Part shown: positions 43,575-48,216 of the stretch, piece after piece
Numbering within the stretch: the first letter of the stretch is position 1
Layout: each line of letters starts with the position of its first letter
Assembly: GCA_965218095.1 (NCBI GenBank)
Contig: OZ244587.1
Coordinates: forward strand, 6,286,490 to 6,350,489
Length of the DNA: 64,000 bases
Source of the DNA: Candidatus Poribacteria bacterium
Lineage (GTDB): Bacteria; Poribacteria; WGA-4E; PCPOR2b
Direction: 5' to 3'
Translations under genes and position numbers: made by a program
Notes under the pieces: generated by a model
What the model was told of the DNA's origin: nothing
The model's database searches: none
What the model saw: only the letters and a program-made list of their open reading frames with translations

Positions 43575-44400
43575 CTAGGTTCTGTTGACATTTGAGTATA
43601 AGGTTGTGGCATAATAGAAGAATGACGCCAATAACCTTACCTGATGAACAATGGAATAAGATATACCGGTTTCTTCTTAGCTGTCTCACCATCTATGTTG
43701 GCAACGAAGCTGCTACACGCTGCTTCGTCGAAGCCGTCCTGTGGGTGACTCGTAGCGGCGCTCAATGGAGACTTCTACCAGACACCTATGGCAAATGGAA
43801 CACCCGCTACAAGCGGTTTGCTCGATGGTGCGACAAAGGTATCTTCACACAGATGCACCACCACTTCGCCTCTGACCCCGATATCGAGTCGCTTATTGTG
43901 GACAGTACCATCTGCCGCGCTCACCCGTCTGCGGCGGGCGCCTTAAAAAAAACGGTGGCACTGAAAACCAAGCATTAGGTCGCTCTCGGGGCGGTTTCAG
44001 CACAAAAATTCACATCACAGTTGACGGACTAGGCAATCCCCTAAGAATTCATCTGACACCCGGTCAGAGACATGACATAACTGAGGCGGAAGGGTTGATA
44101 ATCGGATATAACAGTGAATATGTGATTGGAGACAAGGGGTACGATTCGGACGCTTTTATCGCGGTTATTGAGGCGAATGGAGCGATTGCAGTGATACCGC
44201 CAAAAAGTCATCGTGTTGACCAAAGAACGTATGACAAACACTTATACAAAGAGAGACATCGGGTTGAATGTTTCATCAACAAGATAAAATGGTATCGTCG
44301 TATCTTCTCTCGGTTTGAGAAGCTAGCTGTCCGTTATTTTGGATTTCTCAGCTTTGTCTCCACTCTTATATGGCTCCCTTGAAATGTCAACAGAACCTAG
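43575..44400 (+). mobile_element. IS5-family element copy 3, orfA/orfB with probable -1 frameshift
   Basis: Same ends, 826 bp; A8 run at about 43945 between ORFs 43622..43978 and ..44382. Confidence 0.93.
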
Positions 44401-44807
44401 CACAAGTCGTTAATTATTAAAAAGTAATGACTGTAGAGATTAGGTTCTGTTGACATTTCATCGTAACCAGATAATCACAGCAACGAAACTCAGAAACCCC
44501 AAATAGCGACCCGCCAACTTATCAAAACAACTGAAGATACGCCTATAGTGCTTGATTTTGTTGATGAAGCATTCCACCCGATGTCTCTCTCGGTACAGAT
44601 GCGTATCATAGTCTCGTGACTCACGGCGGTTGATACGGGGACGAATCACTGGCTCTGCACCCATACGGGTTATCAACTGCACCAATGAATCCGCGTCATA
44701 CGCTGAGTCGGCTATCACATACTCACTGCTATACCCTTCTGCACAAGTCATGGCGTGGCGTTGTCTAGCCGTCAGCGCAAAACGTAACGCATTTATAAAT
44801 AATTGGC

Positions 44808-44836
44808 TTGCAGATTCTTTGAATATGTGATATTAT
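44808..44836 (+). promoter_or_regulatory. Sigma70-like promoter in the left IR, facing the cargo
   Basis: TTGCAG-17 nt-TATTAT with extended -10 TG. Confidence 0.6.
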
Positions 44837-44920
44837 TGGGGTGTTACAAGCCTGTGATTCTGAAGTTTATTAAATCGTTGGCTTGTTTTACCTTTCCTCG
44901 CCAAAGTAAAGGACACCCCA

Positions 44921-45361
44921 ATGAGTGATTTTCTTAGTGTAGTAGCGGATATACTCATTATCATTGCTGCTGGAAAGTTCATTTGGAAACACATTCCCAG
45001 TAGTGACGATTTGTATAGTATCAGAAAGTCCTTCATAGACTTCAGAGATGAAGCAAAACAACTGAAAGAAGAAGTCGTCAATTTAAGAAGGGTAGAGCTT
45101 ACCAACATCGCAGAGAATCTGAAAACTAGAGATGCAACTGCGAAGAAAACCGTACCTGTTGAAGATATTGACAAGAAACTTGATTCTTTTCAACAGTCAG
45201 TAACGAGAATGGACAGGTACATGACAACTACCCTTGCAACTCATGTAGCAGTCATCAAGTCAATAGATAGTATAGAGGGGCGTTATGCCCAAATGGAGGA
45301 ACGATTTGGGCAAACCGAAACAACCCTCCGAAATGTTGCTAGAAGATTGCACATGAGATAG
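44921..45361 (+). CDS. IS1595 passenger: N-terminal TM plus coiled-coil protein (146 aa)
   Basis: AAGGA SD; hydrophobic residues about 4-22; heptad-rich remainder. Confidence 0.7.
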   Translation: MSDFLSVVADILIIIAAGKFIWKHIPSSDDLYSIRKSFIDFRDEAKQLKEEVVNLRRVELTNIAENLKTRDATAKKTVPVEDIDKKLDSFQQSVTRMDRYMTTTLATHVAVIKSIDSIEGRYAQMEERFGQTETTLRNVARRLHMR

Positions 45362-45426
45362 ACATAAAACAGGCGAGGGGGTGTTATAGCACCCCCACCG
45401 CCACAACATGGCAAAGGAGACCCCCC

Positions 45427-45606
45427 ATGCCACGCATCAAATACATCAAGTCTTACAGGCGTAAAGACGGCACGCTTGTAAGTCCACATATACGGACAAC
45501 TGCTGATAACACCCTCTGCATCACGACTTATTCCAATGAAAGGAGGGATTATCGTGTTTATAAAAATACGCAAAACCTTTACGTTTATCGTACTCAAAAT
45601 CGCTAA
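45427..45606 (+). CDS. IS1595 passenger: 59-aa basic protein with YxRKDGTxVxxHxR motif
   Basis: AAGGAGA SD; MPRIKYIKSYRRKDGTLVSPHIRTTADN..; below the ORF-track length cutoff. Confidence 0.6.
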   Translation: MPRIKYIKSYRRKDGTLVSPHIRTTADNTLCITTYSNERRDYRVYKNTQNLYVYRTQNR

Positions 45607-45664
45607 ACGTAAGGGTAATCAAACGCCGTATAGCAGTCCTTATACGGCTACGCCTAAGCAATAA
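45554..45664 (+). CDS. Possible 36-aa cationic peptide overlapping the 59-aa ORF
   Basis: Perfect AAGGAGG at 45540-46, GTG 7 nt later: MFIKIRKTFTFIVLKIAKRKGNQTPYSSPYTATPKQ. Confidence 0.35.
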   Translation: MFIKIRKTFTFIVLKIAKRKGNQTPYSSPYTATPKQ

Positions 45665-45780
45665 CTCTTAGGCAATATCAGGGGGTGCTACACAAAGCAC
45701 TCCCTGATATTTTGTTGCTAGAGTGTCCGGCTCCCACCGGACACTCCCTTATGGGAAAACCTCTGAAAATATGACTCAGA
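45625..45780. ncRNA. Candidate structured RNA: consecutive hairpins in the IS1595 cargo
   Basis: Stems at 45625-48 (8 bp), 45652-73 (7 bp), 45674-711 (16 bp), 45721-46 (10 bp), 45762-80 (5 bp). Confidence 0.5.
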
Positions 45781-45795
45781 AAGGAGGCAGATGTT

Positions 45796-45990
45796 ATGTC
45801 ATCACAAAGGAAGGTGGATATTCAACGTGTTAAAGAACATCTACAAAAACATGCTGATAAAACCCACCGAATTGAAGAGAGGTTATTTACCTCTACTGCA
45901 ACCGTAGAAGATTTAAGAGTTGCAATTCAGTTACTTAAAAATGACTACACACTAATTACAACCATTTTCAAAAGGTTGGAAATAGTGTAA
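45796..45990 (+). CDS. IS1595 passenger: 64-aa helical protein
   Basis: AAGGAGG SD; bracketed by a 14-bp inverted repeat (45752-65 / 46013-26). Confidence 0.6.
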   Translation: MSSQRKVDIQRVKEHLQKHADKTHRIEERLFTSTATVEDLRVAIQLLKNDYTLITTIFKRLEIV

Positions 45991-46028
45991 TCTAATCCTT
46001 CTATGGAGTCTCCAGAGGTTTTCCCACC

Positions 46029-46910
46029 CTACACAAAGCATTCCCTGATAAACTTCTTGAAGATGTTCCGGTTCTTCCGGTTGTTGTACTTGTAACACGC
46101 CTCAGCGATGTAGAGCGAAACATGCTTGTAGTGGTGATGTGTACCATGAAACGCACGTTTCACCAGCGACCAGAACCCTTCAATCGTGTTTGTGTGGGTA
46201 TTACCGTCCACGTACTGCCAGTTCTTGTGTCTGATGACATGGTGAGGCATGAGCCCATCAACCGCCTCATACGATGAGAACTCATCTGTCATTAGAACTG
46301 AATCCTTCGGCTTCTCAATAACGCCTTTGATGAACCCCAAAACGCCCTTACGACTCAAACTCGTAGCCACACGCGCCACAACATTCCCAGCCCGTTCAAC
46401 AGCACCGATAACGGGCGTTTTCTTCGTGCCTCTACCTCGCTTGCTCGGTGGAGGCAAGTTCCCGTCCTTGTCTTTTCGTCGTCGGGGCTTACCGCCCACG
46501 TAGGTTTCATCGCATTCAATAATTCCTCTCAGTAAAACCTTGCCCTTTCTACCCATCTCAGACCTGATTCGTTTCATCATGAACCAAGCTGAGGGTTGCG
46601 TTAAGTCCAAATGACGAGCCATTTGACAACTTGATAGGCTTTTCTTCGCATCGTTCATTAACAGGATAGCCATAAACCACTTCTGAAGTGGAATCTGTGT
46701 TCCTTGAAATATCGTTCCCTGTAACACATTGAAACTTGACTTACAAGTATGGCAATTCCAACGACCAATTATGCTAGCTTCATTCTTCGGTGCAACCTTT
46801 TTACTTTCGCAATATGGACACTCAGGTTTGCCACCCCAGCGGATAGTTTCTAAGTGTTTAATACAACTCTCTTGGTCAGAAAATCGTTCTACAGCATCAA
46901 ACAAGTTCAT
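46029..46910 (-). CDS. IS1595-family transposase
   Basis: RWG..CPYC..C..C zinc ribbon, IECDETYVGG, MTDE, HTNTIEGFWS, YIAE..YKYN. Confidence 0.95.
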   Translation of the reverse strand: MNLFDAVERFSDQESCIKHLETIRWGGKPECPYCESKKVAPKNEASIIGRWNCHTCKSSFNVLQGTIFQGTQIPLQKWFMAILLMNDAKKSLSSCQMARHLDLTQPSAWFMMKRIRSEMGRKGKVLLRGIIECDETYVGGKPRRRKDKDGNLPPPSKRGRGTKKTPVIGAVERAGNVVARVATSLSRKGVLGFIKGVIEKPKDSVLMTDEFSSYEAVDGLMPHHVIRHKNWQYVDGNTHTNTIEGFWSLVKRAFHGTHHHYKHVSLYIAEACYKYNNRKNRNIFKKFIRECFV

Positions 46911-46949
46911 TCATCTCAACTCCTTTATTCATAAGGGTTTGATGCCTAT

Positions 46950-46978
46950 ATTGTATCAAATTTACACAAAACTTGCAA
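46950..46978 (-). promoter_or_regulatory. Sigma70-like promoter in the right IR, facing the transposase
   Basis: TTGCAA-17 nt-TACAAT with extended -10 TG. Confidence 0.6.
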
Positions 46979-47470
46979 GCCTAAACCTTATAAGCGCGAA
47001 ACGTAATGGATTGCCTAAGCCATCAACCGTGATGTGAATTTTGGTTGAAAATCCACCCACACTACGTCCGAGTGCCTGTGAGGCTTGACCGCCACTTGTT
47101 TTCAAACCCCCTGCAGCACAGGGGTGAGCGCGGCAGATGGTACTGTCACCATATCTAGGTCGTTGACAAAGTGTTGATGCAGCCGTTGGAAGATGCCTTT
47201 ATCGCACCAGCAAGCGAATTGTTTATAGACGCTGTTCCAACTGCCGTACTCTTTTGGTAGGAGTCGCCATTGACTACCACTACGAGTTATCCAAAGCACT
47301 GCTTGGACAAAACGTTTTAAGTTCGCTTGCTGTCCGGTGTAGACATCGGAACAGGTTTGCAGGAATGCTGCTATTTTTGACCATTGATTATCGGATAAGG
47401 TAAGTGTTGACATATCGTTATTATGCCATGAATGTCAACACGTCCTAGCTAAATATTTTTCCGCGATGTA

Positions 47471-48216
47471 CTATCCACGACCAATGTAAAGCTGATTGAC
47501 AGGCATCACAATCGCTTCAAGCATGTTGACGTGCGGTGCATGTTGACGTGCGGTGGTAGAGTCGCTATGAGAACCACGGCTTGTGCGAGTTCATCCACCT
47601 GCATCATCGGCTCAGACGGGGACTCTTGACGATCGCTGACGCGCTCGACAAGCGTATTGCCCGGATGCAAACAACTGGCGACAATTCCGTGTCGGCGTCC
47701 CTCCAAAGCGGTCACCTGGGTCAACCCCCAGATGCCAAATTTGCTCGCGCTATAAAGCGCAGAGTTCAGTCGGACCCGCTGTGCCGAGATACTGCCGATG
47801 TTGATGATGCGTCCCCCACCTTGCTTCTTCATAATGCGCATCGCGGCACGGGTACAGAGGAAAGGCCCTCGAAGATTGACGGCAATCACGTTGTCCCACG
47901 CCTCCGTCGAGAGCTCATCCAGCGGTCCCCCATCGAAGGCGCCAGAGTTGTTGACCAGAATATCCACCCGGTTGAAGCGTTCCATCGTGCGTTCAAACAG
48001 CGCTTCAATCTGTGCTTCATCGGTGACATCGGTCGGTATAGTGAGTACCGTTGCGCCGTTTGCCCTTAATTCTTCAGCCGTTTGATTCAATTCTTCGACC
48101 CCGCGTGCCGCTAATACGACGCTCGCGCCTTCAGCGGCGAGCCCCCGTGCGATCCCTTTGCCAATTCCCCTGTTACCTCCTGTGATGATAGCAACTTTAC
48201 CATCTAACTTGCCCAT
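47471..48216 (-). pseudogene. SDR oxidoreductase, C-terminus frameshifted by a 17-bp tandem duplication
   Basis: TGGNRGIG, YSASK; gcatgttgacgtgcggt twice (47521-47554); removing one copy gives ..PPHVNMLEAIVMPVNQLYIGRG*. Confidence 0.85.

Follow-up and report, generated by a model that had tools for sequence, protein, structure and literature searches.

Here, we describe a mobile element in a 64,000-nt stretch of DNA (the window) from a Candidatus Poribacteria bacterium (contig OZ244587.1), and we propose that the unit at positions 44788-46998 is probably an IS1595-family transporter insertion sequence (tIS) that has been active recently, with a predicted architecture for the expression of its passenger genes. 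The unit encodes an intact transposase and, on the opposite strand, four small open reading frames (ORFs) that we call p146, p59, p36 and p64 after their lengths in amino acids (Table 1). The 6.35-Mb genome to which the window belongs holds nine full-length copies of the element (BLAST), all of exactly 2,211 bp and with identical first and last bases. Seven of them are identical throughout and the other two have the same one-base change, C>T, within the transposase gene, so the burst that gave rise to these copies must be very recent. An identical passenger region of 1.24 kb lies inside the inverted repeats of all nine copies: the passenger region moves with the transposase. No transposition-related domain was detected in the passenger ORFs with Pfam or NCBIfam.

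The borders of the element are sharply defined. An exact junction repeat flanks eight of the nine copies, 8 bp long in six of them and 9 bp in two, and the ninth has no exact repeat; the insertion targets are A+T-rich, with six to eight A/T per eight positions. The copy in the window is inserted inside an IS5-family element (DUF4096 at 2.6e-22; DDE_Tnp_1). Both flanks of this insertion are found contiguous at 14 other places of the same genome (BLAST, 96-99% identity), which provides the empty site and indicates that the split IS5-type element is itself highly repeated. The empty-site joint, 44779->46999 with eight shared letters, also occurs in contigs of the four sequencing runs examined (4/4). 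At the ends of the element, the 25-bp left and right inverted repeats (IRL and IRR) match at 18 of 25 positions when IRL is compared with the reverse complement of 46974-46998, and a GGCTTG core is common to both ends of the relatives. The G+C content is 42.9% for the element and 33.8% for the p64 gene, compared with 50.0% for the genome. The two copies with a 9-bp junction repeat are those at genome positions 4255180 and 4581981; the copy at 3216657 is the one that has no exact repeat.

The transposase, of 293 aa, matches the Pfam families DDE_Tnp_IS1595 (PF12762; 1.6e-34, profile positions 2-153 of 153) and Zn_ribbon_IS1595 (PF12760; 3.6e-8, 33.7 bits for a cut-off of 25.4, residues 12-57), as well as the NCBIfam model transpos_IS1595 (NF033547; 1.4e-53, 181.9 bits for a cut-off of 75), and can be aligned to its relatives over residues 1-293. 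The hallmarks of the IS1595 family are all found in this unit, namely the DDE domain, the zinc ribbon, the terminal inverted repeats and the 8-bp duplication. In a collection of plasmids, the best match to the transposase shows 40.7% identity and is annotated just as 'IS1595 family transposase', and no named IS was retrieved there.

A preliminary description, made from the sequence of this stretch, had placed the boundaries exactly, with an 8-bp duplication, and had reported an intact IS1595 transposase and a cargo of about 1.2 kb on the opposite strand. The ends shared by the nine copies and the empty site, the family matches and the constant passenger region bear these statements out; the 25-bp inverted repeats that it announced do exist, but they are imperfect. 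It had further presented the unit as the best candidate for an undescribed system, and this we cannot follow. Indeed, IS1595-family elements with passengers inside their repeats form a described category, the tIS (Siguier et al. 2009, via PMC3129680; definition in a TnCentral preprint), at least in the excerpts of these sources available to us. In line with these partial accounts of tIS, the unit combines a single IS1595-type DDE transposase carrying a zinc ribbon with inverted repeats, an 8-bp duplication and co-moving passengers. It differs from them in that its passengers are orphan small proteins.

Table 1. Features of the element and its surroundings; positions are those of the window.
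Feature	Positions	Strand	Remarks
Split IS5-family element, ORF parts	44458-44751; 47102-47413	-	DDE_Tnp_1, C-terminal; DUF4096, N-terminal (Pfam)
Left 8-bp target site duplication	44780-44787		AAACGTAA
IS1595-family element	44788-46998		2,211 bp, bounded by inverted repeats
IRL	44788-44812	+	Distal to transposase; all 9 copies start here
Putative left promoter, inward-facing	44808-44836	+	TTGCAG at 44808, 17 nt, TATTAT at 44831, TG one base before -10
Leader (5' untranslated region, UTR)	44837-44920	+	z -3.6; closing stem ends just before p146 start codon
p146	44921-45361	+	N-terminal membrane anchor, then three long helices (predicted)
T1 hairpin, G+C-rich	45372-45402	+	After p146; z -3.3; no U-tract
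p59	45427-45606	+	Small basic protein, net charge +9
Variable 169-nt segment	45508-45676	+	p59 C-terminus, p36, three hairpins
p36	45554-45664	+	Possible cationic peptide, GTG start, strong ribosome-binding site
Hairpin	45575-45616	+	z -6.6; inside swapped segment
Two small hairpins	45625-45648; 45653-45672	+	z -4.7 for the pair; inside swapped segment
T2 intrinsic terminator	45674-45711	+	16-bp stem and T-run; z -8.3; terminator scan
22-nt direct repeat, first copy	45688-45709	+	Within T2
22-nt direct repeat, second copy	46029-46050		True transposase 3' end
H3 hairpin, G+C-rich	~45721-45746	+	Upstream of p64; z -4.1
p64 module	45752-46026	+	Closed by perfect 14-nt inverted repeat 45752-45765 / 46013-46026
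p64	45796-45990	+	Two-helix hairpin protein (predicted)
IS1595-family transposase	46029-46910	-	Intact, 293 aa; Pfam, NCBIfam
Transposase promoter (predicted)	46950-46978	-	TTGCAA, 17 nt, TACAAT, TG before -10; -35 hexamer inside IRR
IRR	46974-46998	-	Proximal to transposase
Right 8-bp target site duplication	46999-47006		AAACGTAA

Relatives of the element and their changing cargo

We searched for relatives of the transposase and kept 80 of the 102 loci found. They lie mostly in metagenome-assembled genomes labelled Poribacteria, Latescibacterota, Chloroflexota/Caldilineaceae, Nitrosomonadaceae and Alphaproteobacteria. Neither p146, p59 and p64 nor p36 with the longer ORF in which it is nested (p42) gave a tblastn match at E<=0.1 in any of these 80 loci. 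Extra DNA past the transposase gene is the rule among the relatives: 19 of the 44 loci examined are delimited by inverted repeats, and these contain 383-2,482 bp of it. Pairs of copies found among the relatives also show exact ends and flanking duplications.

Three loci share the backbone of the element and none of its genes. L030 is a 2,227-bp contig with a transposase 79% identical to that described here, while L016, in which the transposase gene is frameshifted, and L017, which has no transposase, are decayed relatives from the same genome. The left end and the leader are kept in five variants (the element itself, L017 twice, L016 and L030), each time before a different ORF, and four of these five ORFs start with a hydrophobic segment. 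The -10 of the left promoter is kept in four of the five. In one L017 copy, the -10 and the leader stand ahead of a second gene without any inverted repeat, which suits an expression signal. Among the genomes of the phylum, the leader was found just in this genome, on the L030 contig and as one 33-nt match. A pattern scan also returned seven metagenome loci with the leader core; they have no further likeness to the element or its proteins and were set aside as chance matches.

T2 is the second feature that recurs. It is kept in all four variants compared (4/4), and one of its pairs varies between GC, GU and AU, with no pair changed on both sides relative to the commonest form. L016 and L017 also retain the small hairpin that precedes T2. 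The T2 homologue of L030 has the true stop codon of the transposase gene within it, and the order of the features on this contig is IRL, leader, membrane-protein gene, hairpin, gene for a 41-aa basic protein, T2 over the stop codon, transposase and IRR; this arrangement points to a simple, ancestral form of the element. Among 44 loci that were folded, only L030 has a T2-type hairpin over the transposase stop, which is thus a feature of this sub-lineage only. Conservation in related elements, proposed as a check together with the preliminary description, gave a mixed answer: the cargo proteins have no tblastn match at E<=0.1 in the 80 loci, and the leader and T2 are shared with the closest relatives, the latter without a two-sided pair change. 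We also noted that L016:3056-4796 and L017:3244-4178 share a block coding for a 293-aa protein with a signal peptide, a coiled coil, a membrane segment and repeats. In L016, a copy of an 83-aa ORF stands on each side of the block, which lies between duplicated transposase 3' ends; these proteins have no family match.

More distant relatives carry cargo of other kinds. In one Latescibacterota genome, transposase genes that are about 90% identical at the DNA level are accompanied by at least five unrelated cargos (L045-L055, L070, L074), located from the stop codon to the far inverted repeat. One consists of a methylase-HNH protein and a 96-aa ORF, another of a 128-aa membrane protein and a nested IS, a third of ORFs of 108 and 67 aa, a fourth of a PycTM-like protein (176 aa) and a methylase-HNH protein, and a fifth of an HSDR_N protein. 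An N6_N4 DNA methylase is present as cargo in seven elements from several phyla (L041, L045, L054, L068, L075, L077, L092). It is fused to HNH in four of them and to Mrr_cat in one (1.8e-5), and weakly in one more (6.9e-4); these fusions look like one-polypeptide restriction-modification enzymes. Counted over all elements, the cargo includes an HSDR_N protein in one element, a secreted SNase homologue in one, and orphan membrane proteins in several. The 176-aa membrane protein of L054 (4887-5417, +) directly follows the transposase stop and matches PycTM in PADLOC at 3.4e-5, with no cyclase gene in the element. By eye, the N-termini of the 128-aa protein of L048 and the 164-aa protein of L059 are similar to that of the L054 protein; neither has a PADLOC match.

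Passenger proteins of the element

The ORFs of 146, 59, 36 and 64 aa announced in the preliminary description are all present, and each has the clear Shine-Dalgarno site that was reported, an AGGA/AGGAG(G)-type ribosome-binding site located 7-9 nt upstream. None of the four proteins falls into a family of Pfam, PADLOC, PHROGs or NCBIfam beyond noise. The statement that the cargo could not be matched to a described system therefore holds, Rfam included. For p59, p36 and p64, PADLOC 2.0 returned zero matches, and nothing places them in a known anti-phage system. With Pfam at E<=10, nothing significant was obtained for p59, for its relative P0004 or for the L030 proteins. From these searches, the passenger proteins appear to be extreme orphans.

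A single hydrophobic segment spans residues 4-22 of p146 (KD19 2.11). The structural model of this protein is all-helical, with helices at 2-24, 29-68, 81-117 and 123-144, and is of low confidence (pLDDT 58). Among 5.8 billion proteins, a word-indexed search retrieved P0001, a 99% near-copy, and P0002, at 67% identity. An exhaustive HMMER search of 1.84 billion representatives (E<=0.001) gave four matches, of which P0002 and P0008 are real; the other two, of 7,361 and 1,986 aa and aligned over many stretches, were rejected as coiled-coil noise. P0008, of 85 aa, is 48% identical to p146 over residues 5-73. P0002, of 142 aa, is 67-69% identical to p146, with the frame kept and gaps in-frame. It is near-identical over about 80 N-terminal residues and diverged thereafter, a mosaic that suggests recombination inside the gene. 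P0002 is present on seven contigs, one of them of 5.5 Mb, and is probably multi-copy in its genome.

In the 175 other genomes of the phylum, including 28 of the family, p146 gave no match at E<=0.001; a weak match of 52 residues in one genome of the family (E 0.005, at a threshold of E<=0.01) was taken as chance. An alignment search confirmed none of 388 pattern hits in genome contigs, 231 in metagenomes and 56 in viral sequences. The phage clusters proposed for p146 by ESM Atlas (DUF2746 and DUF2730, score 0.90) were not retained, since such a score is reached by chance 4-10 times in 100; the recognition value of this query was also below the usual level. PADLOC gave nothing better than E 0.0017 for p146, and its matches to Avs2 (0.0017) and JetC (0.0019) are coiled-coil noise. 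Finally, a near-identical variant of the element, found in contigs of sequencing runs and described below, shows four base differences in p146, three of them synonymous at third positions and the last giving D88G, as in P0001. From these substitutions and the frame kept in P0002, the p146 ORF is probably real.

p36 is nested in a 42-aa ORF starting at 45536 and has a net charge of +8 (KD19 0.64). Besides its own sequence, p59 has one relative, P0004, which equals p59 over the first 27 residues and then differs; the middle of P0004 resembles the C-terminal end of p36. The best score of P0004 in ESM Atlas was 0.83 and provided no lead. In the near-identical variant, the segment 45508-45676 is replaced by 110 other letters (joint 45507->45677, in one contig each of runs X6, X7 and X9), while the form found in the window is also present in runs X5 and X7. 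As this swapped segment holds the C-terminus of p59 together with p36, these two are the least secure of the ORFs. We also observed, in run X5, the joints 45708->46024 and 44896->45677 (sides of 42 and 29). They might come from versions of the element without the p64 module or without the p146-p59 block, or equally well, at 85% likeness, from other elements, and we gave them no weight.

p64 is modelled with confidence (pLDDT 88) as two helices, at residues 3-31 and 37-61. Compared with the PDB by Foldseek, this model has no match at E<=0.001, the best being at E 0.38, among generic helical hairpins and designed proteins. Its sole relative besides its own sequence, P0006, is 89% identical and of the same length, with seven substitutions and no break of the frame.

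These data bear on the proposal that the small ORFs are hitch-hiking or decaying DNA without a selected function, in an element of which just the transposase, ends and terminators would count. Such a view would account for the scarcity of relatives (just two real ones for p146 in the 1.84 billion representatives, one each for p59 and p64) and for the resemblance of p59 and p36 to pieces of one ancestral ORF; moreover, the nine copies are too alike to show selection. However, p146 has kept its frame in P0002 and mostly synonymous changes in the variant, p64 is kept at full length and gives a confident model, and every ORF has a strong and properly spaced ribosome-binding site. Although these numbers are small, they weaken the proposal, which we regard as unlikely.

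What the passengers do can be discussed by analogy. It is possible, though we would not call it probable, that they confer on the host or the element a benefit at the membrane, for example by excluding incoming phage or DNA or by defending against them. p146 would be anchored in the cytoplasmic membrane by its N-terminal helix, would form a coiled-coil assembly and would act together with its small partners. This guess is prompted by the membrane anchor of p146, by the phage look-alikes at the chance-prone score of 0.90 and by the defence-type genes of more distant relatives, and by no family match of the passenger proteins themselves.

The module that encloses p64 raises a further alternative. 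The 14-nt repeat pairs the 5' and 3' UTRs of p64 in the RNA fold, with further pairs over the ribosome-binding site, and the fold of 45665-46035 reaches a z-score of -9.7. In hok mRNA, translation is locked by a 5'/3' fold-back. The cargo could thus be viewed as a toxin-antitoxin addiction module that stabilises the element, in which a membrane-active p146 or a cationic p36 would be checked by a small protein or an antisense RNA, and in which the p64 fold-back would act as a translation lock. The membrane anchor of p146, the charge of p36, the long-range pairing around p64 and a terminator-like hairpin on the minus strand (45648-45625) would all fit such a module. Nevertheless, p36 is not hydrophobic, and the fold-back encloses p64, which is predicted to be a soluble helical hairpin and as such is unlike a type I toxin; in this the module departs from hok/sok type I toxin-antitoxin systems. 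No toxin or antitoxin family was matched in Pfam, PADLOC or NCBIfam, p36 is absent from the near-identical variant, and a toxin gene, if active, would burden the cell heavily at nine copies. We consider an addiction module highly improbable.

Promoters, hairpins and a proposed expression frame

The transposase promoter is the sole site reported by the promoter scan; shuffled sequences give a mean of 4.0, hence it is a match to the consensus and no proof. Since the ends of the element are inverted repeats, IRL carries a mirror of this site, which points inward at the leader and p146. We propose that mirror-image promoters face inward from both ends, with their -35 hexamers in the inverted repeats, and that the right one drives the transposase gene. 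The left one, together with the conserved structured leader and the ribosome-binding site, would drive a passenger operon made of p146, T1, p59/p36 and T2. The leader also holds an IR-like GGCTTG motif with its inverse, and a direct repeat links 44796-44810 with 44871-44885.

On the other side of the passenger region, the final 22 nt of the transposase gene recur as the 3' arm of T2. The two copies of this 22-nt repeat are 21/22 identical (95%), with a spacing of 341, and enclose a 319-nt insert containing H3 and p64. H3 and the p64 module therefore appear as a later insertion at the transposase stop codon, accompanied by a 22-nt duplication. These two repeats also occur in L016, on either side of another block, of 1.7 kb. 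T2 would ancestrally have overlapped the stop codon of the transposase gene, served both convergent units and kept each from antisense read-in. H3 was found only in the nine copies. When the leader, p146, T1-p59, the inserted segment, H3 and the p64 module were each searched as independent repeats of the genome, the nine copies were the only places found, except that both decayed relatives hold the leader and T2. The p64 module, being confined to the nine copies, is thus not a miniature inverted-repeat transposable element here. T1 and T2 share a core, AGGGGGTG followed by a few bases, CAC and a C-run, and a hairpin at the position of T1 is also found after the first gene of L030. T1 might have arisen as an earlier copy, since decayed, of the hairpin at the transposase end, which would mean that passenger genes were added successively at that site.

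Two slots, one from the leader to T2 and the other from T2 to the transposase stop, would exchange passengers by recombination among variants of the element. The mosaic structure of P0002, the swap of 169 for 110 nt and the turnover of cargo among relatives all fit such an exchange.

The preliminary description had counted about seven hairpins, and had proposed that the module is regulated by RNA. We confirmed seven, all of which fold far better than dinucleotide shuffles (z -3.3 to -8.3). If the passenger region were a system in its own right, regulated by RNA and devoted to addiction, defence or the control of transposition, the hairpins would act as riboregulators of the small proteins. Apart from their stability, the perfect 14-bp stem that closes the p64 mRNA and its pairs over the ribosome-binding site would agree with this, as would the leader stem that ends just before the p146 start codon and the lack of matches to known families. 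But Rfam, which had been suggested for the purpose, gives nothing above chance: the one hit inside the element is ftsZ-DE, with 20.7 bits for a gathering score of 72.2 (E 0.98). The only hairpins that recur in relatives, the leader and T2, fit the ordinary roles of promoter/UTR and terminator. The others are confined to nine near-identical copies, in which covariation cannot be shown, and three of the seven lie in the segment missing from the near-identical variant. We therefore hold an RNA-regulated system to be very unlikely. Roles as terminators, insulators and stems at mRNA ends or over translation starts between convergent units adequately account for the hairpins. According to the architecture proposed here, the stems other than T2 would delimit RNA ends, shield them or restrain translation, with no separate riboregulator.

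The element was also encountered in RNA libraries. Among the 15 runs listed with it, four are RNA libraries, from one study and labelled sponge metagenome, with 69-79% of the sampled words. Three RNA-library runs and one other run were compared with the element, and their contigs cover the variant element. Some contigs reach from p146 across T2 and p64 as far as the transposase gene (X7, 45087-46789; X9, 45053-46352; X6, 45004-46100). These contigs bear on the possibility that the passengers control transposition. In that case, the basic p59/p36, or the 41-aa protein in L030, would bind the ends of the element, and convergent transcription from the left promoter would damp the transposase by collision or antisense RNA. 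The convergent layout with -35 hexamers inside the inverted repeats, the small and strongly basic second gene both here and in L030, the additional GGCTTG motif and its inverse in the leader as a possible transposase binding site, and the bridging contig from X7 would all be expected. By contrast, the slot genes are wholly different among elements whose transposases are 79-80% identical, which is unexpected of an essential regulator, and some relatives have just 383-452 bp of extra DNA (L043, L044). T2 should also halt most of the read-through, and the contigs show no strand. Altogether, control of transposition by the passengers seems to us quite unlikely.

Several points weigh against our own reading, that of a tIS with a promoter-leader and a terminator framing its passenger slots and, possibly, a membrane or defence role for the passengers. 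The left promoter was read by eye, falls below the threshold of the promoter scan and matches the -35 consensus at 3/6 positions. T1 and H3 have no U-tracts and would be non-canonical terminators. The promoter scan found no promoter for p64 between T2 and the p64 start, and the expression of this gene as well as the 14-bp stem are unaccounted for. The contigs from RNA libraries attest to presence only, DNA carry-over being possible, and give neither strand, ends nor level. p59 and p36 may be broken remains, as two halves of one ancestral small basic protein. The census of cargo is partial: 36 candidate cargo ORFs were put through Pfam, in two sets of 18, the latter picked from 57. Moreover, the link with defence is an association only. 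The elements with defence-type cargo have transposases of just 50-62% identity, and in the closest relatives other orphan membrane proteins are found.

Comparison with described systems and significance

Among the closest relatives of the element, a further distinctive trait would be the slot itself, framed by a promoter-leader and by a terminator that once overlapped the transposase stop. Restriction-modification genes have been described in units with inverted repeats and 8-bp duplications, and as insertions with long target duplications, in the accessible part of a previous study (Furuta, Abe & Kobayashi 2010, PMC2853133). As far as this partial text allows a comparison, the distant relatives resemble such units in that DNA methylases fused to nucleases occupy the stretch from the transposase to the far inverted repeat, and the p64 module, bracketed by its 22-nt target duplication, resembles such junctions. 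In contrast to the units covered by that excerpt, the element itself has neither methylase nor nuclease, and its 22-nt duplication lies inside the IS, at the transposase stop codon.

The arrangement of the ends recalls another element. IS1 has a promoter in its left inverted repeat, and its own protein binds its ends. Likewise, the -35 of the transposase promoter lies here within an inverted repeat and the other end carries a mirror promoter-like site facing inward; unlike in IS1, this second promoter is predicted to drive passenger genes. The passengers also evoke integron cassettes, as small, swappable and mostly promoterless ORFs, each followed by an imperfect palindrome, with one fixed promoter at the edge. 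However, there is no integrase ORF in 44000-47800, and the exchange would be better explained by recombination between variants of the element.

In the spanin layout, a membrane-anchored coiled-coil protein is associated with a small outer-membrane lipoprotein. In its modelled architecture, and in this respect only, p146 resembles phage membrane-anchored coiled-coil proteins such as i-spanins, with an N-terminal membrane helix and long helices with a break. Unlike a spanin pair, p59, p36 and p64 have no signal peptide with lipobox, and no match to DUF2746 or DUF2730 was found in Pfam or PHROGs.

This work adds a well-delimited and evidently active tIS from an uncultured lineage, the Poribacteria, a phylum of sponge symbionts; in the collection of papers that we searched, no account of IS1595 elements in sponge symbionts was found. 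Three features go beyond the ordinary: the conserved expression frame of the slot, the rapid turnover of its content even between near-identical elements, and a wider clade that spans several phyla, often with methylase-nuclease fusions. As a speculation to which we give a rather low probability, this IS1595 lineage would be a platform for gene capture and expression, a fixed promoter-leader and terminator framing swappable slots, that spreads across phyla in sponge microbiomes. There, p146, p59 and p64 would form a compact membrane-acting set for exclusion, defence or addiction, with p64 silenced by its 5'/3' mRNA clamp until a trigger. In view of the three features above, these elements would serve as small carriers of single defence-type or membrane genes between unrelated bacteria of one habitat, a habitat that we deduce solely from the 'Poribacteria' labels and the sponge RNA runs.

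Finally, next to the insertion, a second IS5-like ORF (44095-44382, +) faces the split IS5-family element. The junction between the two (44376-44464) is palindromic and gives three weak Rfam matches, to plant miRNA and plastid UTR models (E 0.09-0.19), which are most likely chance matches on a hairpin formed between two inverted IS ends.

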